Translations under genes and position numbers: made by a program
The notes under the pieces: model-generated
Seen by the model: only the letters and a program-made list of their open reading frames with translations
Told to the model about the DNA's origin: nothing
The model's database searches: none
In this document: positions 128-22,998 of the stretch, piece after piece
Position numbering within the stretch: position 1 is the first letter of the stretch
Layout of the letters: the number at the start of each line of letters is the position of its first letter
Virus record (IMG/VR): IMGVR_UViG_2740892031_000002
Source: a virus
Taxonomy: Duplodnaviria; Heunggongvirae; Uroviricota; Caudoviricetes
Strand: one strand, 5' to 3'
Length of the DNA stretch: 29,553 nt

Positions 128-907
128 ATGACGATGAATTCATTCGAGCGAAGGAATAAGATCATCCAATTAGTGAATGAACAGGGAACCGTGCTTGTTC
201 AGGATCTGGCGGGAGTATTTGCTGCCTCGGAAGCGACAATCCGTGCCGATTTGCGCTTTCTCGAACAAAAAGGCGTGGTTACGCGCTTTCATGGCGGTGC
301 GGCGAAAATAATGTCAGGTAATAGCGAAACCGAGACCCAGGAAGTCGGGTTTAAAGAGCGATTTCAGCTCGCCAGCGCGCCGAAAAACAGAATAGCGCAG
401 GCGGCAGTCAAAATGATCCACGAAGGGATGACCGTTATTCTCGACAGCGGAAGTACCACAATGCTTATCGCCGAAGGATTAATGACCGCCAAAAATATCA
501 CGGTGATTACCAACAGTCTCCCGGCGGCGTTTGCCCTTTCCGAAAATAAAGACATTACTCTGGTCGTCTGCGGTGGCACGGTCCGCCATAAAACGCGCTC
601 GATGCATGGATCTATTGCTGAACGTTCCCTGCAGGATATTAATGCCGATTTAATGTTTGTCGGTGCTGATGGTATTGATGCGGTTAATGGTATTACGACC
701 TTTAATGAAGGTTATTCCGTTAGCGGTGCGATGGTGACAGCGGCGAATAAAGTGATTGCCGTTCTTGATTCATCGAAATTTAATCGTCGCGGTTTTAATC
801 AGGTACTGCCAATCGAAAAAATTGACATTATTATTACCGATGATGCTGTGTCTGAGGTGGATAAACTGGCATTGCAGAAGACACGGGTAAAATTAATTAC
901 GGTGTAG
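128..907 (+). CDS. gatR: DeoR-family transcriptional repressor (N-terminal HTH, C-terminal sugar-phosphate-binding domain); position next to yegS matches galactitol operon repressor GatR
   Basis: 259-aa ORF; DeoR-like N-terminus (NKIIQLVNEQGTVLVQDLAGVFAASEATIRADLRFLE); sits convergent to yegS as gatR does in E. coli. Start could be ATG at 128 or 134. Confidence 0.7.
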   Translation: MTMNSFERRNKIIQLVNEQGTVLVQDLAGVFAASEATIRADLRFLEQKGVVTRFHGGAAKIMSGNSETETQEVGFKERFQLASAPKNRIAQAAVKMIHEGMTVILDSGSTTMLIAEGLMTAKNITVITNSLPAAFALSENKDITLVVCGGTVRHKTRSMHGSIAERSLQDINADLMFVGADGIDAVNGITTFNEGYSVSGAMVTAANKVIAVLDSSKFNRRGFNQVLPIEKIDIIITDDAVSEVDKLALQKTRVKLITV

Positions 908-919
908 TATTGTTCTGTA

Positions 920-951
920 TGCCGGATAAGGTGTTTACACCGTATCCGGCA
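920..951. repeat. REP-like palindromic hairpin between convergent gatR and yegS (possible bidirectional terminator)
   Basis: 9-bp stems tgccggata / tatccggca flank a loop that is itself palindromic (ggtgt..acacc); GCCGGATA-type sequence is typical of enterobacterial REP elements. Confidence 0.5.
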
Positions 952-988
952 TTACGGATTCTCTCTGGTTCAACAGAGAATAGTTTGA

Positions 989-1888
989 TTAACGCAACAA
1001 TGGACAATCTGGTGGTAATCGACAACGCAACGCCGCCGGAAGTATTTCAATATGGAAGTTTTGCCCACTCAACGGTTCGCCATCAAGATTAAAAGTGATT
1101 TCGTGTGGGGCTTGTATATCAAACCACGACGAAGCACCTTCGATAATATTCGGGTTATCTTCGTCAGATTTTAAGGTTGATACGAGAGTCGGAATAATTT
1201 CATCGCCGGTAAAAATGCGCAGTTGCAGCAAGCCATCGTTAATTAATGCGTTCGGGCACAATTGTTGACCGCCACCGGCCTGACGCCCGTTACCAATACC
1301 AATGACCAGGGCGTCACCTTGCCAGTGAAAGTTTTCACCGCGGATTTCACAACGGTCCGGTTGCAGAGTGTCCATGCGCATTAAGCCATGAATGATGTAA
1401 GAGACGCCACCCAGCGCGGCTTTTAATTTTTCCGGCGTTTCTGTGGTAATACGCGTCCCAAACCCGCCTGTCGCCATATTAATAAAACAGGTTTGTTTGT
1501 TGACCTGCGCCATATCTATCGCAATGGCGTTACCGGCAATTGCCAGTTTCAGCGCCTTATCCAGTGCCTCAGGAATCCCTACACTAGTGGCAAAATCATT
1601 GGCAGTTCCTAATGGTAAAATTCCCAGCGCGGGTATGTCATCCCCCTCACATTGAATCAATGCCGTAGAAACTTCATTAATGGTGCCATCGCCACCACCG
1701 GCAATCACTGTTGCGACGCCTAACTTCCGGGCCTCCTCTACAAATCGTGCAGCATCGCCTTTCTCCCAGGTGATCCGCACATGGATCGTCATTCCTTCCT
1801 CACGCAACAGCATAATTGCTTCGCGCAAGGGTAGATTGTCAGTACTTTTGCCATTAAGAATCAGTAAGCTGGCGGGAAATTCTGCCAT
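989..1888 (-). CDS. yegS: Lipid kinase YegS (diacylglycerol-kinase catalytic-domain family)
   Basis: 299-aa ORF with the DAGK_cat glycine-rich motif ([13 protein letters not shown]); full-length match to my recollection of E. coli YegS. Confidence 0.85.
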
Positions 1889-2302
1889 GATCGTATGTGC
1901 CTTTATGATTGGTCTGTAGATAGTGTAGAGCAGAAAAGAAAAGGTGGAGTCAGAACAGGATGAAAGTCGGAGGATAAAAAGTCAGTTCAGGTATGGGGAT
2001 TCAGTGCTTACCACCAGGACCTTACAATGGGGACAGCGAATATTAACGGTAGCCACTGATAAATTTTAAAAAAGAGAATATACCTAATATTCAACTAAAC
2101 AGTGGCATCTTCAATATACTATTCAAAATATATTAAAGTCCCCCATGGGGTTACCCGGAAGGGCCTCTATGTCTGTAATTCCTACTTATGTAGGAAATGT
2201 TGTACAGAACATTTATTATAATCCTATTCAATTATAATAATCATGCCATTATTATATTTAAACACCAGAGCGTGTCGTTGGTATTTAATGGGGGAAGGTG
2301 AG

Positions 2303-2620
2303 ATGAAAAAGATAGCTGCTATATCATTAATTAGTATTTTTCTTATGTCTGGGTGTGCTGTACATAATGATGAGACAAGTATCGGTAAATTTGGTCTTGC
2401 ATATAAAAGTAATATTCAGCGTAAACTCGATAACCAATACTACACCGAAGCCGAAGCTTCTTTAGCCAGGGGCAGAATATCTGGTGCAGAAAATATAGTA
2501 AAAAATGATGCAGCCCATTTCTGTGTTACTCAGGGCAAAAAAATGCAGATAGTTAAATTGAAGACAGAAGGTGCAGGATTACATGGCGTTGCTCGTCTGA
2601 CATTCAAATGTGGAGAGTGA
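2303..2620 (+). CDS. yegR: Small secreted/lipoprotein-like protein, likely host yegR
   Basis: Tracked ORF 2243..2620; internal ATG at 2303 is preceded by a GGAAGGTGA Shine-Dalgarno and gives 105 aa starting with a signal peptide ending LMSGC (MKKIAAISLISIFLMSGCA). Size and position next to yegS match E. coli yegR; AT-rich. Confidence 0.55.
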   Translation: MKKIAAISLISIFLMSGCAVHNDETSIGKFGLAYKSNIQRKLDNQYYTEAEASLARGRISGAENIVKNDAAHFCVTQGKKMQIVKLKTEGAGLHGVARLTFKCGE

Positions 2621-2948
2621 GAATAGATTCAAGACTACCATGCACATATTTATTTTATCTGTGATGGGATATTCTTCAACACCATTATTGAATGTGAGTA
2701 ATAATGACAAACAGATAGATGAAACTAAAGCAGAATTTTTATTTTATGCAGCCATCAGAAAATGATGTCAAAAATATTCCAATGCTTTAGGTTCATTTTT
2801 TGGTAAGCGTCAAACATGCGCGTTCTGGCTGTGCGTAACCGGAACCTGTGCGAGCACGATGTCGATAAGTGAAAGGCATCGTGCTATTAAGGGAGATTCT
2901 ATCGATGTGGTCAATGGAAGACGGTGACCAGGGATAGGGCTTATGCAT

Positions 2949-2975
2949 AAAAAATAAGCCTGTGTAAGGGAGATT
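2949..2975. other. P2-type att core-like sequence (prophage left junction, attL)
   Basis: aaaaaataagcctgtgtaagggagatt differs at one position from the 27-bp P2 attP core as I recall it (AAAAAATAAGCCCGTGTAAGGGAGATT); lies about 80 bp beyond the 3' end of int, as in P2. Confidence 0.6.
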
Positions 2976-3054
2976 TAGGGTGTCACCAGTAGGGGCTTTC
3001 AACGGTACAATGCGGGTTTGAGCGGCATAAATTACCACTGAAAGCCCTTAAACG

Positions 3055-4068
3055 TTACTCTACTGTGGACACTGTGTGGACACTCTCGGCCTCAGTACCA
3101 CCTCTTAGCGGATTAAGAGAAATGGCGTCCTGAAGGTACTCTGGCGCAAAATGAGCGTAAACCATAGTTTGCTCAATCCGCGTGTGACCTAGTATCCGTT
3201 GTAGCGTGATAATACTTCCTCCATTAATCATGAAATGAGTGGCAAAGCTGTGCCTTAGTGCATGTGTGGCTTGCCCCATTGGCAAATCCGGTTTTATTGC
3301 TTTCATTGTTCGTCTGAAGCGAGGGTAATCAGCATCAGGGAATAAAAAACCTCGTTTGTTATCCGCGATCATTTTGGCAACAGCCTCTGAGATCGGGACG
3401 GTGCGTGGTTTGTTTGTTTTCGTTTTAACAAACGTGACGCGGTTATGGATGATATTTTCTGCTTTCAAACGAGCTGCTTCTCCCCAACGTGCTCCTGTAC
3501 TTAGGCAAAGAATCGCAATCTTTTTATTGTCGCCGTCAAGTGCTGCAAGCAGTAAGGCTATTTCTTCCTGTGTGAGATAGCCTGTTTCTGGTTTTTCCTC
3601 CTTAAGCCTCTTTGTCCCTCTGATAGGATGTTCACCAAAGAATAACTCCGCTTCAATCAGGGCTGTAAACATGCCGCTAATACATGTTAAATCACGATTG
3701 ATACTCGAAGGTTTAATACCCTGACTTCTTCGGGTGGCGCAGTACTGGCTGATAAGGGATTTCGTGATTTGAAATGCGCATGGGTCATTCGTTATTTTTG
3801 TGAAGATTTCAATTTTTCCAAGATTAGATTTCCCATGCTCTTCGTGTTTACCCTTTAAATCCCACCAGATCTGTGTCAGTTCCGACAGACGTCGTTTGTC
3901 TGTTGGTTTTGATAGCCATTCTTTATTGTGGTGGTTGTACAACGTGTATTTTTCGAAAGCGACAGCTTCGCTTTTCTTATCAAACTTCCTACGGATGCGT
4001 TTTCCGTTACGTCCAGTAGGGCGGATGTCCACTTCATATCGACCATCATCGAGTTTTTTGATTGCCAT
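3055..4068 (-). CDS. int: P2-type tyrosine integrase
   Basis: 337-aa ORF; N-terminus MAIKKLDDGRYEVDIRPTGRNGKRIRRKF and C-terminal catalytic region (HALRHSFATHF ... RILGHTRIEQTMVYAH) as in P2 Int. Confidence 0.95.
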   Translation of the reverse strand: MAIKKLDDGRYEVDIRPTGRNGKRIRRKFDKKSEAVAFEKYTLYNHHNKEWLSKPTDKRRLSELTQIWWDLKGKHEEHGKSNLGKIEIFTKITNDPCAFQITKSLISQYCATRRSQGIKPSSINRDLTCISGMFTALIEAELFFGEHPIRGTKRLKEEKPETGYLTQEEIALLLAALDGDNKKIAILCLSTGARWGEAARLKAENIIHNRVTFVKTKTNKPRTVPISEAVAKMIADNKRGFLFPDADYPRFRRTMKAIKPDLPMGQATHALRHSFATHFMINGGSIITLQRILGHTRIEQTMVYAHFAPEYLQDAISLNPLRGGTEAESVHTVSTVE

Positions 4069-6372: not shown

Positions 6373-6644
6373 GTATTCGTATTGAAATTGGCGAACGTTA
6401 TGTCGTTACCAGTGACAGCTTTCAGTTTATTCTCCACGAGAAAAAGAGAGCGGAAAGCGGTAAAAACGCCGGTCAGGAATGGCTGGCGGTGGTTGGTTAT
6501 TACCCGAAATTAAGCCAGCTCGTTTCCGGCCTGATGCATCACGATATTCTGACCGGAAGCGCAAAGTCTTTTGCTGATTTAAACGCGCAGGTTGAGCAAC
6601 TCAGCAAGCGTTGCTCAGAGGCTTTTGGCTCATATGGCCGTTAA
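6369..6644 (+). CDS. Small early protein at the P2 orf83 position
   Basis: 91-aa ORF; stop overlaps the start of A. Confidence 0.6.
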   Translation: MSIRIEIGERYVVTSDSFQFILHEKKRAESGKNAGQEWLAVVGYYPKLSQLVSGLMHHDILTGSAKSFADLNAQVEQLSKRCSEAFGSYGR

Positions 6645-8934
6645 AGCCTCCGGGCGTTTTGTCCCTCCGTCAGCATTTGCTGCAGGCACCGGTAAGGCGT
6701 TTACCGGTGCTTATGCATGGAACGCGCCACGCGAGGCCGTCGGGCGCGAAAGACCCCTTACACGTGACGAGATGCGTCAGGTGCAAGGTGTTTTATCCAC
6801 GATTAACCGCCTGCCTTACTTTTTGCGCTCGCTGTTTACTTCACGCTATGACCACATCCGGCGCAATAAAAGCCCGGTGCACGGGTTTTATTTCCTCACA
6901 TCCACTTTTCAGCGTCGTTTATGGCCGCGCATTGAGCGTGTGAATCAGCGCCATGAAATGAACACCGACGCGTCGTTACTGTTTCTGGCAGAGCGTGACC
7001 ACTATGCGCGCCTGCCGGGAATGAATGACAAGGAGCTGAAAAAGTTTGCTGCCCGTATCTCATCGCAGCTTTTCATGATGTATGGGGAACTCAGTGATGC
7101 CTGGGTGGATGCGCATGGCGAAAAAGAATCGCTGTTTACGGATGAGGCGCAGGCTCACCTCTATGGTCATGTTGCTGGCGCTGCACGTGCTTTCAATATT
7201 TCCCCTCTCTACTGGAAAAAATACCGTAAAGGGCAGATGACCACGAGGCAGGCATATTCTGCCATTGCCCGTCTGTTTAACGATGAGTGGTGGACTCATC
7301 AGCTTAAAGGCCAGCGTATGCGCTGGCATGAAGCGTTACTGATAGCTGTCGGGGAGGTCAATAAAGACCGTTCTCCTTATGCCAGTAAACACGCCATTCG
7401 TGATGTGCGTGCGCGCCGCCAGGCAAATCTGGAATTTCTTAAATCGTGTGACCTTGAAAACAGGGAAACCGGCGAGCGCATCGACCTTATCAGTAAGGTG
7501 ATGGGCAGTATTTCTAATCCTGAAATTCGCCGGATGGAGCTGATGAACACCATTGCCGGTATTGAGCGTTACGCCGCCGCAGAGGGTGATGTGGGGATGT
7601 TTATCACGCTGACCGCGCCGTCAAAGTATCACCCGACACGTCAGGTCAGAAAAGGCGAAAGTAAAACCGTTCAGCTTAATCACGGCTGGAACGATGAGGC
7701 ATTTAATCCAAAGGATGCGCAGCGTTATCTCTGCCGCATCTGGAGCCTGATGCGCACGGCATTCAAGGATAATGATTTACAGGTCTACGGTTTGCGTGTC
7801 GTCGAGCCACACCACGACGGAACGCCGCACTGGCATATGATGCTTTTTTGTAATCCACGCCAGCGTAACCAGATTATCGAAATCATGCGTCGCTACGCGC
7901 TCAAAGAGGATGGAGACGAAAGAGGAGCTGCGCGAAACCGTTTTCAGGCAAAACACCTTAACCGGGGCGGTGCTGCGGGATATATCGCGAAATACATTTC
8001 AAAAAACATCGACGGCTATGCACTGGATGGTCAGCTCGATAACGATACCGGTAAGCCGCTTAAAGATACTGCCGCGGCTGTTACCGCATGGGCGTCAACG
8101 TGGCGCATTCCGCAATTTAAAACGGTTGGACTGCCGACAATGGGGGCTTACCGTGAACTACGCAAATTGCCTCGCGGCGTCAGTATTGCTGATGAGTTTG
8201 ACGAACGCGTCGAGGCTGCTCGCGCTGCCGCAGACAGTGGTGATTTTGCGTTGTATATCAGCGCGCAGGGTGGGGCAAATGTCCCGCGCGATTGTCAGAC
8301 TGTCAGGGTCGCCCGTAGCCCGTCGGATGACGTTAACGAGTACGAGGAAGAAGTCGAGAGAGTGGTCGGCATTTACGCGCCGCATCTCGGCGCGCGTCAT
8401 ATTCATATCACCAGAACGACGGACTGGCGCATTGTGCCGAAAGTTCCGGTCGTTGAGCCTTTGACTTTAAAAAGCGGCATCGCCGCGCCTCGGAGTCCTG
8501 TCAATAACTGTGGAAAGCTCACCGGTGGTGATACTTCGTTACCGGCTCCCACACCTTCTGAACACGCCGCAGCAGTGCTTAATCTGGTTGATGACGGTGT
8601 TATCGAATGGAGTGACCCGGAGGTTGTGAGGGCGCTCAGAGGTGCATTAAAATGCGGACTGAGAACACCAAATCGTCAGCAAAGAAACGGAAGTCCGTTA
8701 AAACCGCATGAAATAGCGCCATCAGCCAGGCTGACCAGGTCGGAGCGATTGCAAATTACCCGTATTCGCGTTGATCTTGCTCAGAACGGTATCAGACCTC
8801 AGCGATGGGAGCTTGAGTCGCTGGCGCGTGGGGCAACCGTAAATTATGACGGGAAAAAATTCACGTATCCGGTCGCTGATGAGTGGCCGGGATATTCAAC
8901 TATAACAGAGTGGAATCAATTTGATGACGGGTAA
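6634..8934 (+). CDS. A: Replication initiation endonuclease A (rolling-circle initiator)
   Basis: Tracked ORF 6592..8934; P2 gpA begins MAVKASGRFVPPSAFAAGTGK, which corresponds to ATG at 6634 (766 aa). Long-range identity to P2 A by eye. Confidence 0.93.
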   Translation: MAVKASGRFVPPSAFAAGTGKAFTGAYAWNAPREAVGRERPLTRDEMRQVQGVLSTINRLPYFLRSLFTSRYDHIRRNKSPVHGFYFLTSTFQRRLWPRIERVNQRHEMNTDASLLFLAERDHYARLPGMNDKELKKFAARISSQLFMMYGELSDAWVDAHGEKESLFTDEAQAHLYGHVAGAARAFNISPLYWKKYRKGQMTTRQAYSAIARLFNDEWWTHQLKGQRMRWHEALLIAVGEVNKDRSPYASKHAIRDVRARRQANLEFLKSCDLENRETGERIDLISKVMGSISNPEIRRMELMNTIAGIERYAAAEGDVGMFITLTAPSKYHPTRQVRKGESKTVQLNHGWNDEAFNPKDAQRYLCRIWSLMRTAFKDNDLQVYGLRVVEPHHDGTPHWHMMLFCNPRQRNQIIEIMRRYALKEDGDERGAARNRFQAKHLNRGGAAGYIAKYISKNIDGYALDGQLDNDTGKPLKDTAAAVTAWASTWRIPQFKTVGLPTMGAYRELRKLPRGVSIADEFDERVEAARAAADSGDFALYISAQGGANVPRDCQTVRVARSPSDDVNEYEEEVERVVGIYAPHLGARHIHITRTTDWRIVPKVPVVEPLTLKSGIAAPRSPVNNCGKLTGGDTSLPAPTPSEHAAAVLNLVDDGVIEWSDPEVVRALRGALKCGLRTPNRQQRNGSPLKPHEIAPSARLTRSERLQITRIRVDLAQNGIRPQRWELESLARGATVNYDGKKFTYPVADEWPGYSTITEWNQFDDG

Positions 8935-9065
8935 TCGAATGGAATGATCCGGCGGTCGTGAGGGCGCTCAGAGGTGCATTAAAACACGGTCTGAGAATAC
9001 CAAATCGTCAGCAAAGAAACGGAAGTCCGTTAAAACCGCTTGCATTTGTGCCATCGCGAGGCTGA
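8921..9065. repeat. Degenerate direct repeat of the 3' end of gene A (partner copy at about 8588-8734)
   Basis: ~145 bp starting ttgatgacgg...atcgaatgga...gtgagggcgctcagaggtgcattaaaa... recurs just after the A stop codon, similar but clearly diverged by eye; the second copy is out of frame and non-coding. Confidence 0.85.
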
Positions 9066-9351
9066 TCAAATCAGGTTTGTGATAAATTACTAGTATTTAT
9101 ATAGACCTCGCTCAGTATGGCATCACACAGAAGTAATGTAAGCGTGGGGGGCGTGGTGTACCATTGATATACGACGGTCGAAAATTTACATAGCCGATTT
9201 CCTGTGATTGGTTTTCGTTATGCACTCTTTTCTGAAGAGATTAACTACTGATAGACTCAGGTTGGATGTCAGAATCGCTATAGATTTCTTGCTATATATG
9301 TATTTTTCAATGAAAATGATCTCTGATTTAAACTGTAGTAAGGTGATTGGT

Positions 9352-9840
9352 ATGGATGGTTTATGGGAAAAAATATCGTCATATAATATATTTAATAATC
9401 TTTTTCCAGGTGCTCTTTTTATTTATCTTCTTGAGAGAATGACGAATATCGTTTTATCTGGCGATGATTTAATAAAAAATGTTGTCCTCTATTATTTTGT
9501 TGGCTTAGTCATTGGCCGGATTGGTTCTATCGTATTGGAACCTTTTTTAAAACTATCGCGTTTGATTAAGTTTGCTCCTTATAAAGATTATGTGTCAGCA
9601 TGTGGTGTGGATGGAAAAATTGAAACTTTGCAAGAGATTGCGAATATGTATAGGACGATATTTTCAATGTCAATTATTCTTTTGGCGACATTGTGCGTTG
9701 TAGGACGGTTTACTGGCGAGACATATGGCTTATCTAAAATAACGTTGGCGGTTTTTGCTATTTTGTTTGTTGTCTCATATATTAAACAAATAAGATACAT
9801 AATATATAGAGTAAATGCTGTTAATAATAAGCTGCCGTAA
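9352..9840 (+). CDS. Hypothetical small multi-pass membrane protein (about 4 predicted TM helices); hotspot cargo
   Basis: Tracked ORF 9208..9840; ATG at 9352 has an AAGGTGA Shine-Dalgarno 5 nt upstream (163 aa). Four hydrophobic stretches (LFPGALFIYLL; VVLYYFVGLVIGRIGSIVL; IFSMSIILLATLCVV; ITLAVFAILFVVSYI). AT-rich; no homolog recognised. Confidence 0.65.
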   Translation: MDGLWEKISSYNIFNNLFPGALFIYLLERMTNIVLSGDDLIKNVVLYYFVGLVIGRIGSIVLEPFLKLSRLIKFAPYKDYVSACGVDGKIETLQEIANMYRTIFSMSIILLATLCVVGRFTGETYGLSKITLAVFAILFVVSYIKQIRYIIYRVNAVNNKLP

Positions 9841-9850
9841 GGCAGCTTTT
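9829..9850. terminator. Bidirectional intrinsic terminator between convergent cargo genes
   Basis: Perfect 8-bp stem aagctgcc / ggcagctt with a gtaa loop that contains the stop codon of the membrane-protein gene, followed by a T-run. Confidence 0.7.
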
Positions 9851-9853
9851 GAA

Positions 9854-10945
9854 TTATTCTTCGGTTCTATAGTTACTAATGTATGATCGTGGAGTGGCTG
9901 TTTTCCATCCTGCCCTTTCAGGAGCATTATAAAAATGGTACTTACCAAGCCCCTCGGTGGCGATAACTTTCGCTCCTCGTCGAGTAAAGGCATTAATTAC
10001 AGCTTGATGGGGATGTTTATCTGAACCTGGGGCACATGATACAAATGCGGTTATCTCCCTTTTTTCGCCTTCATTTACAATGTTACCAACAAGTTTATCG
10101 AGAACATCAGGGCCTACATTTCTCCGGCTACCATGATGAGGTACTTGAATGAATCTTAATGATTCTTTATTAATGTATTGGGAGGCTTGATCTAAGGCTG
10201 TTATACCAGCATCGCCAGTGAACACTAACGTTCTTCCATCAATCTCAAGTTTCAAAATGACACTTGAGTTATTTTGTGCCGAGGTGGTATCTTCATTATC
10301 AATACCTTCATCAGTAAACCATTCAGCAACGTAATCAATAAATTTCTTCGTTTTTTCAACTACAGACTCAAAGACTGCTTTTAGTACTTCAAATCCAGCT
10401 GTATCCTCAGCTTTTTTGGGCATTCTTGCGAAATCAGGTATTAGAGTCTCATAGTAAGATTGGGTTGGCCCGATAACAACCAGAGTAGCATTATCCCAGG
10501 TCATTCCTTGAAAAGGCTCTTTTATTTCAATTCCTTTTTTTTCCGCTAATTTGACAGCGTCATAAGCTTTTTGTAAGTTTTCTTTCATTCGATTTGCAAT
10601 ACTGGCATCAGTTATCCTGCCATCTGCAAACTCACTTGCGAGACCTTGATTATGTTCCCAAGGCTTATGAATCCAAAACTCTTTTACTTCTGCATTTTCT
10701 AGAACAGATGTAAGTCCACCGACGTGGTCACCATCGGGGTGTGTGGAGATAAGCAAGTCAATAGTTTTTGTGCGGTAGTATTTTTCAATATGCTCAATGA
10801 CTTGTTCTCCGGTGCTGGCATATCCTGCATCAATAACGACAACTTTTTGTTCATCTCTTGAACCATGTAGGTTTCCCCATCTGATGCAGATCGCATCGCC
10901 GCTTTTTTTTTCGCCAACAGCTAGAAAATCAATTTCGTAACCCAT
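9854..10945 (-). CDS. Metallo-beta-lactamase-fold hydrolase, ComEC/Rec2-like subtype (putative metal-dependent nuclease); hotspot cargo
   Basis: 363-aa ORF. ComEC-type MBL signatures in order: IDFLAVGEKKSGDAICIRW, KVVVIDAGY, LISTHPDGDHVGG (variant of the HxHxDH motif), LVFTGDAG, QVPHHGS. AT-rich. Confidence 0.8.
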   Translation of the reverse strand: MGYEIDFLAVGEKKSGDAICIRWGNLHGSRDEQKVVVIDAGYASTGEQVIEHIEKYYRTKTIDLLISTHPDGDHVGGLTSVLENAEVKEFWIHKPWEHNQGLASEFADGRITDASIANRMKENLQKAYDAVKLAEKKGIEIKEPFQGMTWDNATLVVIGPTQSYYETLIPDFARMPKKAEDTAGFEVLKAVFESVVEKTKKFIDYVAEWFTDEGIDNEDTTSAQNNSSVILKLEIDGRTLVFTGDAGITALDQASQYINKESLRFIQVPHHGSRRNVGPDVLDKLVGNIVNEGEKREITAFVSCAPGSDKHPHQAVINAFTRRGAKVIATEGLGKYHFYNAPERAGWKTATPRSYISNYRTEE

Positions 10946-11107
10946 TCCATATCCTTATTAAACTGTGAATTAACATGAATCCAAGATGTTAAATCATATG
11001 GATAATAACGCAACTTTTCCGCAGTAAACACTGTGAGCGGATTTAATCTCGTCAGAACTAAAAGCAAGTAGTGTGACGAGGGACAATGAGTCTCTTTGGG
11101 GCGTTGG

Positions 11108-11545
11108 CTATGACACTGACGCAACCAGATTAACGCCGTGAGTCAGCAGATTTGTAATCACACCGGCAATGACCCCAGGAGTCCCATCTTTCACCGCACT
11201 GATCACTTTATCCCCCATCGTTTCATTTCCACCAAGCACCTCGGGTTTTTTGTTAAGAACTGTGAGCGCTTTTTCAGTAAGTCGAACATCGTAAAAATAC
11301 GACTGATGGTCTGTGTTGTACTGAATGTACCCGTTTTCACAGAGAAAATTGAATGTACCTTCAACCACACTACGCAACTGATTTAACGCTTTCATTTCTG
11401 GTGAGTTAAGTTGGTCAAAGTAGTCATCAGGTAGCGCGGCGTTAAATTTGTCGTAGTTAATCACCTGTGGTACGGGAAAATTTTCCCATAGTACTGCAAA
11501 GATTTCCGCCGTTTGTTGGTTAAATAAATCGAGATTTTTCGACAT
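11108..11545 (-). CDS. Hypothetical protein (~145 aa), upstream of and co-directional with the MBL hydrolase
   Basis: Tracked ORF 11108..11647 (179 aa). In-frame ATGs at 11557 and 11545 give 149 or 145 aa; none of the three starts has a convincing Shine-Dalgarno, so the start is uncertain. Hydrophobic, glycine-rich C-terminus (GTPGVIAGVITNLLTHGVNLVASVS). No homolog recognised. Confidence 0.6.
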   Translation of the reverse strand: MSKNLDLFNQQTAEIFAVLWENFPVPQVINYDKFNAALPDDYFDQLNSPEMKALNQLRSVVEGTFNFLCENGYIQYNTDHQSYFYDVRLTEKALTVLNKKPEVLGGNETMGDKVISAVKDGTPGVIAGVITNLLTHGVNLVASVS

Positions 11546-11873
11546 GCAAAATTCCATTTCTTTTGATAATGAGTGGGTTAAACGCTGGACGAGGCAGATT
11601 ACCACTCTGGCACAAAACAATGATCTTAGTTCACGCGAAGTTGACATATATACCGATAAGCTGGTTGCGCAGGCAACTAGCGTAGAACTCGCTCAGGTCA
11701 TCAAGATGCTATTGAATTATATTCGAATGAACAAATAAAATGATCTGTATCAATCTGTTAGGTGTCGTTTGTAAAAATGTGTGGACACGATTGTTCTGCT
11801 AATTGTTGTCAACATGTGCGTCAACAGTGAGATTGGTGCATTGCGCGGCCAGTGACAACTTTAAAAATTGGCC

Positions 11874-11903
11874 AAAACCGGCACTATGAATGCCGGTTTT
11901 TTT
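11874..11903 (+). terminator. Rho-independent terminator (right boundary of the cargo hotspot, before cos)
   Basis: Stem aaaccggca / tgccggttt with 7-nt loop, followed by tttttttgtgttttttt. Confidence 0.75.
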
Positions 11904-12061
11904 GTGTTTTTTTCTGCGATACTCCTATTTTTAGCAGTGCATGCAATATGTGCGTGGTTTTGCATGTGCCTAAGTTGCATGTTCTGGCTGTGCACCGTCA
12001 GGACGGACGCCCCTCAAAAGTGGTAATGCACCTGCATTAAAACCGACCTATGAAGCGGGCG

Positions 12062-12080
12062 GGCGAGGCGGGGAAAGCAC
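12062..12080. other. cos site (19-nt cohesive-end sequence of P2)
   Basis: ggcgaggcggggaaagcac is identical to the P2 cohesive-end sequence as I recall it; lies between the cargo hotspot and Q as in P2. Confidence 0.7.
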
Positions 12081-12212
12081 TGCGCGCTGGCGGTGGTGCT
12101 GATTTTATTTTTTCAGCGTCTCAGCGCGTCGTGATGGCATTTAGTCGGCCTGCTCGGGCGTTGGTGTGTCTGCGGGGTGTTTTGTGCGGTGGTGAGGGCG
12201 TGATGACGGGAT

Positions 12213-12236
12213 GTAAAAAAGCCGCCCGCAGGCGGC
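12213..12236 (-). terminator. Rho-independent terminator downstream of Q
   Basis: On the minus strand: GC stem gccgcc / ggcggc with a 4-nt loop followed by a run of six T, immediately after the Q stop codon. Confidence 0.75.
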
Positions 12237-12241
12237 GATGT

Positions 12242-13276
12242 TCAGCCGTTGTCAGTGTCAAGTGAGTAGTTTTTAAAGCGGATGACCTCCTGACCGAGCC
12301 AGTCGTTTATCTCGCGGATCCTGTCCTGTAACGGGATAAGCTCATTGCGGACAAAGACCTTTGCCACTTTCTCAATATCACCCAGCGACCCGACGTTCTC
12401 CGGCTTGCCACCCATCAACTGAAAGGGGATGCGGTGCGCGTCCAGCAGGTCAGCGGCGCTGGCTTTTTTGATATTAAAAAAATCGTCCTTCGTCGCCACT
12501 TCACTGAGGGGGATAATTTTAATGCCGTCGGCTTTCCCCTGTGGGGCATAGAGAAACAGATTTTTAAAGTTATTGCGGCCTTTCGACTTCACCATGTTTT
12601 CGCGAAGCATTTCGATATCGTTGCGATCCTGCACGGCATCGGTGACGTACATGATGTATCCGGCATGTGCGCCATTTTCGTAATACTTGCGGCGGAACAG
12701 CGTGGCCGACTCATTCAGCCAGGCAGAGTTAAGGGCGCTGAGATATTCCGGCAGGCCGTACAGCTCCTGATTAATATCCGGCTCCAGCAGGTGAAACAAG
12801 GAGCCGGACGCGAAGGCTGTCGGCTCGTTGAAGGACGGCACCCACCAGTAAACATCCTCCTCCACGCCACGGCGGGTATATTTTGCCGGTGAGGTTTCCA
12901 GTCTGATGACCTTACCGGTGGTGCTGTAACGCTTTTCCAGAAACGCATTACCGAACACCAGAAAATCCAGCACAAAGCGGCTGAAATCCTGCTGGGACAG
13001 CCACGGATGCGGGATAAATGTCGAGGCCAGAATATTACGTTTGACGTAAATCGGTGAGCTGTGATGCACGGCAGCACGCAGGCTTTTTGCCAGACCAGTA
13101 AAGCTGACCGGTGGTTCATACCATCTGCCGTTACTGATGCACTCGACGTAATCCAGAATGTCACGGCGGTCGAGTACCGGCACCGGCTCACCAAAGGTGA
13201 ATGCTTCCATTTTCGGGGCGCTGGCGGTCATTTTTTTTGCCGCAGGTTGCTGTGTTTTCCCTTTTTTCTTGCTCAT
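12242..13276 (-). CDS. Q: Portal protein
   Basis: 344-aa ORF, same length and position as P2 gpQ; start overlaps the P stop. Confidence 0.9.
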   Translation of the reverse strand: MSKKKGKTQQPAAKKMTASAPKMEAFTFGEPVPVLDRRDILDYVECISNGRWYEPPVSFTGLAKSLRAAVHHSSPIYVKRNILASTFIPHPWLSQQDFSRFVLDFLVFGNAFLEKRYSTTGKVIRLETSPAKYTRRGVEEDVYWWVPSFNEPTAFASGSLFHLLEPDINQELYGLPEYLSALNSAWLNESATLFRRKYYENGAHAGYIMYVTDAVQDRNDIEMLRENMVKSKGRNNFKNLFLYAPQGKADGIKIIPLSEVATKDDFFNIKKASAADLLDAHRIPFQLMGGKPENVGSLGDIEKVAKVFVRNELIPLQDRIREINDWLGQEVIRFKNYSLDTDNG

Positions 13277-21493: not shown

Positions 21494-22279
21494 TTATGAG
21501 TGGTTTTTATTTGATGCTTTGTATTCTAAAACCTTCTTATTGGCGTAAAGGAATTTTGTGTATGACAGGAATATAAATAGACCTGAAATAAAATAGATTA
21601 GGGATATTATTAATAATGTTTTTCTGTGGCTGTTATTATCTTTAATCTCCTGACTTAACCATTCGGAGTCCTCCTCGTTTAGCTGTAAGAGCTTATTGCA
21701 GGCGATTGCAGGAAGTGTGTCTGTTACAAAAGTGTTCTGCAGTCTCTTGCAATCGGCAATGCTAAAAGCTTTATAGAACTTATCTGTTTTATTGTCGGAG
21801 AACAAAAGAACCTTGTCATTATAAACATGGTACATCATATTTTTATATGGTATGGCTATGGCATCCTCTACTATGGCAGATTGCTCGTTGTGTATGCAAC
21901 ATGCGAAGATAATATAAAGAATTCCGGCCAGGACTGCACTCATTGTTTTTGTGATGCATGGCGGTTCTGTTATGTCTCCCCAGAAGCGAGTAAGGAAAAA
22001 ATCCGATGTTTTTAGTTTTCCATCAATCAGCCCCTGCTGTATCATTCTCACATCTTCGATGCCTGATACATTGATTCCGTTAAGTATTTTAAATAGTTGA
22101 ATGTCGCGCCACTCGCGGTCCAGTCTTTTTAATTTTTTGTCTGAATATCCAAATTTGAAATAATGTGCAATAAGCCTCATAAGGTTACTTTTACCAAAGC
22201 TAAAAAATGCTAATACTGCAAAGACCAAAAGATACAAAACGATTAGCTCCCACACATTAGTCACATTATAGCTGACCAT
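21494..22279 (-). CDS. Hypothetical multi-pass membrane protein at the S-V (P2 orf30) accessory locus
   Basis: 261-aa ORF; AAGGAG Shine-Dalgarno 6 nt upstream of the ATG. Hydrophobic helices near the N-terminus (VWELIVLYLLVFAVLAFFSF), mid-protein (TMSAVLAGILYIIFACCI) and C-terminus (LLIISLIYFISGLFIFLSY). Strongly AT-rich; no homolog recognised. Confidence 0.8.
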   Translation of the reverse strand: MVSYNVTNVWELIVLYLLVFAVLAFFSFGKSNLMRLIAHYFKFGYSDKKLKRLDREWRDIQLFKILNGINVSGIEDVRMIQQGLIDGKLKTSDFFLTRFWGDITEPPCITKTMSAVLAGILYIIFACCIHNEQSAIVEDAIAIPYKNMMYHVYNDKVLLFSDNKTDKFYKAFSIADCKRLQNTFVTDTLPAIACNKLLQLNEEDSEWLSQEIKDNNSHRKTLLIISLIYFISGLFIFLSYTKFLYANKKVLEYKASNKNHS

Positions 22280-22362
22280 TACGCTCTCCTTGAATGTTGT
22301 CTGGTGGTTCTACAAATGAATCCAGATAGCATAACTTTTATATATTGTGCAATCTCACATGC

Positions 22363-22998
22363 ATGGACACTCTCGCAAATATTCAGGAACTCGCGCGCGC
22401 ACTGCGCAACATGATTCGTACCGGCATTATCGTTGAAACCGACCTTAACGCCGGTCGCTGCCGTGTGCAGACCGGCGGCATGTGCACCGACTGGCTTCAG
22501 TGGCTGACCCATCGCGCCGGACGTTCGCGCACATGGTGGGCACCTTCCGTGGGGGAACAGGTGCTGATTCTGGCCGTGGGCGGTGAACTCGACACGGCGT
22601 TCGTTCTGCCGGGGATTTATTCCGGCGATAACCCTGCGCCGTCTGCGTCGGCGGATGCCCTGCATATCCGTTTCCCTGACGGGGCGGTGATTGAGTATGA
22701 ACCCGAAACCAGTGCGCTTACGGTAAGCGGAATTAAAACGGCCAGCGTGACGGCTTCTGATTCTGTTACTGCCACGGTGCCGGTGGTCATGGTGAAAGCA
22801 TCAACCCGCATCACTCTGGACACGCCGGAGGTGGTCTGCACAAACAAGCTGATCACCGGCACGCTGGAAGTGCAGAAGGGCGGGACGATGCGCGGCAACA
22901 TTGAACACACCGGCGGTGAACTCTCATCAAACGGTAAGGTACTGCATACCCATAAACACCCCGGCGACAGCGGCGGCACAACCGGGAGTCCTTTATGA
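22363..22998 (+). CDS. V: Baseplate central spike protein
   Basis: Tracked ORF 22345..22998; ATG at 22363 gives 211 aa matching P2 gpV (C-terminal HTHKHPGDSGGTTGSPL). Confidence 0.9.
   Translation: MDTLANIQELARALRNMIRTGIIVETDLNAGRCRVQTGGMCTDWLQWLTHRAGRSRTWWAPSVGEQVLILAVGGELDTAFVLPGIYSGDNPAPSASADALHIRFPDGAVIEYEPETSALTVSGIKTASVTASDSVTATVPVVMVKASTRITLDTPEVVCTNKLITGTLEVQKGGTMRGNIEHTGGELSSNGKVLHTHKHPGDSGGTTGSPL

Follow-up and report, generated by a model that had tools for sequence, protein, structure and literature searches.

The 29,553-nt stretch of DNA analyzed here (IMG/VR virus record IMGVR_UViG_2740892031_000002, Caudoviricetes; hereafter the window, at its full length) is a P2-like Escherichia coli prophage, and at positions 9854–10945 (minus strand) it carries a gene for a standalone, 363-aa ComEC-type hydrolase of the metallo-beta-lactamase (MBL) fold (RefSeq WP_021561350). 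This gene and a convergent gene for a 162-aa, all-helical membrane protein (9352–9840, plus strand; RefSeq WP_021561351) form a two-gene cassette, and the membrane protein is the true partner of the MBL, overlooked in a previous annotation that used the letters alone (the sequence-only reading). The cassette is already catalogued, both as the anti-phage candidate PDC-M48 and as cargo of a P2 hotspot. By analogy with characterized relatives, the standalone MBL enzyme is probably a DNase. That it constitutes the enzymatic half of a two-gene hotspot cassette, as a DNase effector under the control of the membrane protein, is a reading in which we place moderate confidence.

The open reading frame (ORF) at 9854–10945 is real; it begins with ATG, is preceded by an AAGGA Shine-Dalgarno-like sequence, and encodes the motifs that had been quoted for it: IDFLAVG (residues 5–11), VVVIDAGY (35–42), THPDGDHVGG (68–77), FTGDAG (242–247) and VPHHGS (268–273). 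The protein matches Pfam Lactamase_B (E = 6e-12) and the PADLOC model PDC-M48B (E = 1.1e-100), and has 1199 homologs at E ≤ 1e-5, which places the MBL assignment far beyond chance. The fold is an alpha-beta/beta-alpha sandwich with five ordered metal-binding motifs, and the nearest relatives, by both sequence and structure comparison, are ComEC nuclease domains, in agreement with the MBL fold proposed earlier. Since the 363 aa contain no predicted transmembrane segment, and the N-terminus opens directly with the first beta-strand of the fold, the protein is probably cytoplasmic; no signal peptide is predicted for it.

The metal ligands are of the ComEC type (all positions are on the minus strand). 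Motif II, H69-P-D71-G-D73-H74 (10724–10741), contains the ligand pattern HxDxDH and is invariant in 44 homologs; N225-N226 (10268–10273) constitutes motif III, aligned to ComEC SNNNS by hidden Markov model (HMM) alignment to 9ic4 and 30bt; and, based on conservation, 10133–10213 extends from motif IV (TGDAG, with D245 as the presumed bridging Asp) to motif V (PHHGS, H270-H271). Across 143 sequences (the query and 142 representatives at 31–50% identity), H69, H74, D39 and N225 are 100% conserved, D245 and H271 are each 99% conserved, D73 98% and H270 97%. The sequence-only reading had treated HxDxDH as a variant in which Asp replaces a canonical His; this is not borne out, as position 71 is D in 122 of the 143 sequences, H in 20 and E in 1, and the solved ComEC domains (9ic4, 30bt) have STHPDADHIGG at motif II. 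The ComEC signature is an Asp for one motif II His together with an Asn for the motif III His; Mn2+ binding, DNase activity and transformation all depend on the two Asp residues of ComEC motif II (Silale et al. 2021). Both the motif II Asp and the motif III Asn are present in the protein encoded here. Judged from the alignment, Asp is the usual residue at ligand position 71, where the canonical His is also accepted, and it marks the ComEC clade.

The protein is not a ComEC/Rec2 protein, and calling it ‘ComEC/Rec2-type’, as had been done, claims too much. It has no channel domain and scores 49.2 bits against TIGR00361 (cut-off 190); the channel plus OB-fold domain architecture of a full-length ComEC/Rec2 was likewise not found (PRK11539, 27 vs. 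969). The same overstatement is found in the RefSeq name, ‘ComEC/Rec2 family competence protein’, given the missing channel domain. The protein is also a member of phrog_7043, labeled ‘tail protein’, although it covers only profile positions 619–901 of 1077, and it is annotated as ‘tail protein’ in NC_049389.

Motifs II and III are separated by 127 aa, vs. 58 aa in the ComEC C-terminal domain, which leaves ~69 extra residues. A long acidic insertion had been reported for roughly residues 100–225; an insertion does exist, but neither the length of ~125 residues nor a marked acidity holds, with 23 D/E vs. 15 K/R across residues 100–225 (55 vs. 43 for the whole protein). Most of the segment is modeled with high confidence, with only residues 185–197 disordered (pLDDT <50), and it contains a conserved family motif, F106-x-D-G-R-x-T-D-x-S115. 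The least conserved part is a variable loop at residues 176–209 (10319–10420, minus strand), which ranges from 12 to 51 aa across the family and is missing from the short (297–320 aa) PDC-M48B forms. We aligned this loop with two protease-associated MBLs from plasmids, one upstream of a Trypsin_2-CTD4 Lamassu/ABC-3C protein (locus L094) and the other upstream of a hypothetical protein and a HamB helicase (locus L093); it aligns with an insertion that the two share.

The closest relatives that have been characterized are MBL proteins that act as pro-nucleases in the Hachiman (HamM), Avs1/2/4, Lamassu/ABC-3C, DRT and canu (CanC) systems. Three studies from 2025 reported that they have no activity before a partner protease has cleaved two insertions that occlude the active site, and that, once cleaved, they degrade DNA indiscriminately, and not RNA, with Zn2+ or Mn2+. 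In these systems the MBL is a constant effector, coupled to many different, interchangeable sensors. The MBL of the window is homologous to these defense DNases: it matches PDLC03854 at E = 1.6e-29, with homology continuous over residues 13–285, and also matches RTasMBL (3.9e-20) and Avs1a (2.5e-14), with a reciprocal HMM match of 9e-20. The NCBIfam equivalog cut-offs are not reached (Avs1a, 62 vs. 420; 6A-MBL, 33.9 vs. 220); the 6A-MBL system was considered and set aside, its match being weak and sub-threshold. No trypsin-, caspase- or subtilisin-like gene lies near the MBL gene, as its neighbors, the membrane protein and a 145-aa protein, have no protease domains. Based on these sequence comparisons, the protein is a sister of the protease-activated pro-nuclease family that has no protease neighbor. 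A DNA- or RNA-degrading effector had been proposed for this gene; a DNA-degrading one fits the characterized defense MBLs, and the RNA alternative is less likely, since the activated relatives cut DNA and not RNA.

The membrane protein encoded at 9352–9840 matches the PADLOC model PDC-M48A (E = 1.5e-50; start per RefSeq). It is hydrophobic by hydropathy analysis, its AlphaFold2 model consists of four long helices (pLDDT 90), and its family has the conserved polar motifs EKISSYNIFN, YYFVGLxISRIGS, NNxYRT and SYxKQ. In many NCBI records it is named ‘phosphohistidine phosphatase’, which is misleading. The PDC-M48B and PDC-M48A matches are adjacent, with their stop codons 13 nt apart, and the gap between the convergent stops is spanned by a perfect 8-bp hairpin (9829–9848, unstranded; AAGCTGCC-GTAA-GGCAGCTT), followed on the plus strand by TTTTGAATT; the hairpin is a candidate shared terminator. 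The MBL and M48A pair was found in 45 of 5426 complete E. coli genomes as two alleles, each a single convergent unit of both genes (23 genomes at ≥99% identity, 22 genomes at ~72%). Allele 2, which is also present in phages 12W, D8, 11W and P24E6b, is the only cargo between gpA and the portal gene.

The partner that the sequence-only reading had implied, a 145-aa protein encoded upstream of the MBL gene (11108–11545, minus strand; phrog_2266; no Pfam, PADLOC or NCBIfam match), would serve as a regulator or antitoxin, and in the window it lies on the same strand as the MBL gene at a distance of 162 nt. Presence/absence patterns dissociate the two and rule out this ORF as the MBL partner: 56 of the 79 E. 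coli genomes with the phrog_2266 gene do not have the MBL pair, while 22 E. coli genomes and the four phages with allele 2 have the pair and not the 145-aa gene. Where the pair is absent, the phrog_2266 gene is beside helix-turn-helix (HTH) plus reverse-transcriptase cargo, also in Klebsiella phage ST147-VIM1phi7.1, and no relatives of the 145-aa protein occur in 80 distant MBL loci. That the MBL works with this protein as its regulator or antitoxin is extremely improbable, and the gene is a separate module. It is always portal-proximal in the hotspot, and the accompanying cargo is of at least two kinds, the MBL pair or HTH plus reverse transcriptase.

In a wider scan, in which each of 185,579 species was represented by a single genome, 494 relatives of the MBL were found, from Proteobacteria, Planctomycetota, Acidobacteriota, Bacteroidota, Patescibacteria, Cyanobacteria and Actinomycetota; an exhaustive profile search gave ~700 clusters at 50% identity with E ≤ 1e-30, and full-length homologs are also on 67 plasmids. 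We fetched 80 related loci from many phyla for neighborhood analysis, and in 65 of them the MBL gene is followed by a gene for a small membrane protein, usually on the same strand and at −3 to +10 nt. Membrane proteins stand in place of the protease in these loci; the positive control, L094, shows the expected Trypsin_2. The membrane partners belong to three families: short M48A (~160 aa), a ~250-aa family and a ~213-aa family. Mutual homology of the three was considered and rejected (hhalign probabilities of 0.7–28%), and they are treated as unrelated. Partner type mostly follows the MBL tree (44 of 50 nearest neighbors have the same type), with several switches, and M48A homologs in Firmicutes and Bacteroidota adjoin divergent ComEC-type MBLs, once in a conjugative transposon.

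The exchange of three unrelated membrane families around a constant MBL could also be read with the roles reversed, as swappable effectors around a conserved core. The membrane protein would then kill through collapse of membrane integrity or potential, and the MBL would sense or activate, for example by binding phage DNA, nicking it or acting on a small molecule, before switching on the membrane protein. Membrane proteins in two-gene systems are generally interpreted as suicide effectors, and the complete MBL catalytic site could equally make a signal. Yet all characterized defense relatives of this MBL are DNase effectors, and the membrane partners, with their conserved polar motifs, are unlike simple pore-forming hairpins; we regard this division of labor as rather unlikely.

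Genes neighboring the related loci encode type I restriction-modification (RM) S and M subunits (16–18 loci), a PARIS/NsnB-like ATPase and PDC-S08. PDC-M48 itself was named in PADLOC as a phage defense candidate (PDC) through guilt-by-embedding (Payne et al. 2024), and the trait that defines PDC systems is a position inside BREX, DISARM and type I RM loci; the related loci near RM and PDC-S08 genes fit this definition. The embedding of the cassette in RM and defense islands of non-phage loci argues against neutral cargo. It could otherwise be that the enzyme is not a nuclease, being instead a phosphodiesterase acting on cell-envelope phosphodiesters, as does Pce, or on cyclic-nucleotide signals, as does the phage anti-defense protein Apyc1. 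The presence of the ComEC-specific ligand pattern speaks against such substrates, as does the lack of phosphorylcholine-esterase or beta-lactamase activity in the related HamM MBL, and a non-nuclease or non-defense role is very unlikely.

The nearest relative in both structure and sequence, the ComEC nuclease domain, acts on DNA at the membrane, and prophage carriage would suit superinfection exclusion. The two genes might therefore encode a two-piece ComEC in which the membrane protein docks the nuclease at the inner membrane face and phage DNA is degraded on entry; according to the positive-inside rule, the conserved polar residues of M48A are in predicted cytoplasmic segments. A fold search of M48A against the PDB, with the recent full-length ComEC structures among the targets, returned nothing below E 0.4, and the idea of a split ComEC channel was left unsupported; neither in fold nor in sequence could M48A be related to the ComEC channel or to any other solved protein. 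Moreover, the ComEC nuclease domain is extracytoplasmic while the MBL here has no signal peptide, and it is difficult to envisage three unrelated membrane proteins all positioning a nuclease at injection sites. Exclusion at entry, in place of abortive infection, is quite unlikely.

The cassette lies between the genes for the P2 gpA replication endonuclease (6634–8934, plus strand) and the P2 gpQ portal protein (12242–13276, minus strand), which form the left and right flanks of the hotspot, and the insert deviates from these flanks in GC content (0.36–0.42 vs. 0.52–0.57). The defense-hotspot location proposed in the sequence-only reading is thus correct, the site being the gpA–gpQ hotspot of a P2-like prophage. 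Positions 8900–12300 are 100% identical to the chromosomes of E. coli strains 4/1-1 and O25b:H4. The gpA–gpQ interval is the cos-proximal old/tin hotspot of P2-like phages (Rousset et al. 2022), and Table S5A of the same study lists the exact cargo (WP_021561351 + WP_021561350 + WP_001752367 + WP_023908566) under the label ‘hypothetical + Lactamase_B + hypothetical + hypothetical’.

In the mechanism that we favor, a cytoplasmic ComEC-type phosphodiesterase with a predicted binuclear metal site would be paired with a small, four-helix inner-membrane protein. The MBL would be the Mn2+/Zn2+-dependent DNase effector, restrained from doing harm as long as the cell is uninfected, with the membrane protein as its latch or sensor. 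An infection-linked membrane event would release or activate the nuclease, and the resulting degradation of DNA would keep the superinfecting phage from replicating, a block for which the cell itself would probably be sacrificed. We infer the DNA substrate, the defense phenotype and the assignment of sensing and killing to the two partners from the homologies and associations described above. A more specific version, which we advance tentatively and hold to be possible though doubtful, is that the MBL, as a latent ComEC-like DNase from the pro-nuclease lineage, is unlocked without proteolysis by a membrane protein from any of the three unrelated families. The membrane protein might sense genome injection, depolarization or holin action as the phage-induced membrane event, with the nuclease then released or reshaped.

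Several points weigh against a membrane-controlled DNase effector. Small membrane proteins in other defense systems are usually read as the killing effector, and neither self/non-self discrimination nor a trigger is evident for the cassette. The second-best structural neighbor of the MBL protein is a phosphorylcholine esterase, ~10 of the 80 related loci have no obvious membrane partner, and, with short PDC-M48B forms devoid of the variable loop, gating by this loop cannot be general. PDC systems are described as experimentally untested candidates, and literature searches gave no paper that names PDC-M48 and no experimental report on it or on an MBL in the P2 hotspot. Finally, the locus shares the gpA–gpQ site with the validated systems of the P2 old/tin hotspot, yet is absent from the validated set (Rousset et al. 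2022).

Some distant loci show variations in gene arrangement. A second divergent ComEC-type MBL is next to the pair in seven instances (L042:9868–10872, L083:7049–8029, L082:5091–5921, L054:4163–5407, L050:7797–8627, L049:7825–8652 and L058:7737–8849), and the three that were scanned (L042, L083 and L054) gave matches to models of PDC-M48B. Such loci point to tandem or three-gene versions of the system. In a Faecalibacillus locus (L084:5001–6436) the order is reversed, with the membrane protein first and overlapping the start of a 297-aa short MBL, and this Firmicutes pair comes after a DUF4365 gene. At L055:5833–7845 the MBL and a membrane partner of the ~250-aa family occupy one continuous 670-aa ORF. 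One extra base before an out-of-frame TAA would be enough to generate this ORF, and we did not count it as evidence of a natural fusion; it may be an assembly error, as the contig name suggests a long-read metagenome bin, in which single-base indels are common.

At the left edge of the hotspot, positions 8931–9055 are a copy of 8599–8723 (a 125-nt direct repeat, 89% identity). Part of an internal stretch of gpA is here present a second time, beginning at the gpA stop codon; this looks like the scar of a cassette exchange by recombination. Between the 145-aa gene and the portal gene, where the cos site is expected, the otherwise non-coding DNA has strong terminator-like hairpins at 11874–11900 (plus strand) and 12221–12236 (minus strand). 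Terminator-like sites in the region exceed the shuffled expectation (10 vs. 3.0), a promoter scan of 8800–12300 was uninformative, with hits below those in shuffled sequence, and Rfam and tRNA scans of the window gave no match.

Elsewhere in the window, a second low-GC island (21494–22665, minus strand; GC ~0.39) is located among tail and baseplate genes; its two ORFs (261 and 128 aa) have overlapping ends and no Pfam or PADLOC match, and it may be the cargo of another variable P2 locus. The host flank (128–4068) contains genes for a DeoR-family regulator (128–907) and a YegS-like lipid kinase (989–1888), and a small unannotated ORF is present in a low-GC stretch (2243–2620) ahead of the phage integrase gene (3055–4068). 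This region, with the integrase, marks the prophage boundary.

If the cassette defends, it would be a compact two-gene system, testable in E. coli, that joins the repertoire of the P2 hotspot. It would also mean that a membrane protein can take control of a ComEC-like defense DNase, a type of enzyme so far encountered only as a zymogen activated by proteases, and unlocking without proteolysis, if true, would be a new coupling of membrane sensing to a nuclease effector. The family is large, is distributed over many phyla, and is carried by prophages, plasmids and conjugative transposons; it is under-called because current tools recognize one of the three partner types. The analysis also corrects three names in public records: ‘ComEC/Rec2 competence protein’, ‘phosphohistidine phosphatase’ and ‘tail protein’.

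Among known systems, PDC-M48 is the one to which the cassette belongs by its components, both of which match the PDC-M48 models, and related loci adjoin type I RM genes, in keeping with the rationale for its discovery. It differs in that the two genes are convergent here, not co-directional, and in that most relatives of this MBL pair with the two membrane families that PADLOC does not model; of the three families, only short M48A has a model. The ComEC/Rec2 nuclease domain is more distant in architecture and setting. The MBL here has no OB-fold or competence channel domain, has ~21 extra residues at the C-terminus in addition to the ~69 between motifs II and III, and is probably cytoplasmic and carried on a mobile element instead of in a competence locus.

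The protease-activated MBL systems share with the cassette a homologous ComEC-like MBL, standalone and ~330–390 aa in length, with homology that continues through the segment between motifs II and III, an insertion at the position of one published gating loop, and a defense context. The difference is in the partner, which is here a membrane protein. That one constant nuclease combines with three unrelated partners parallels the way in which those systems exchange sensors and keep the MBL module, which is consistent with the MBL as effector and the membrane protein as sensor.
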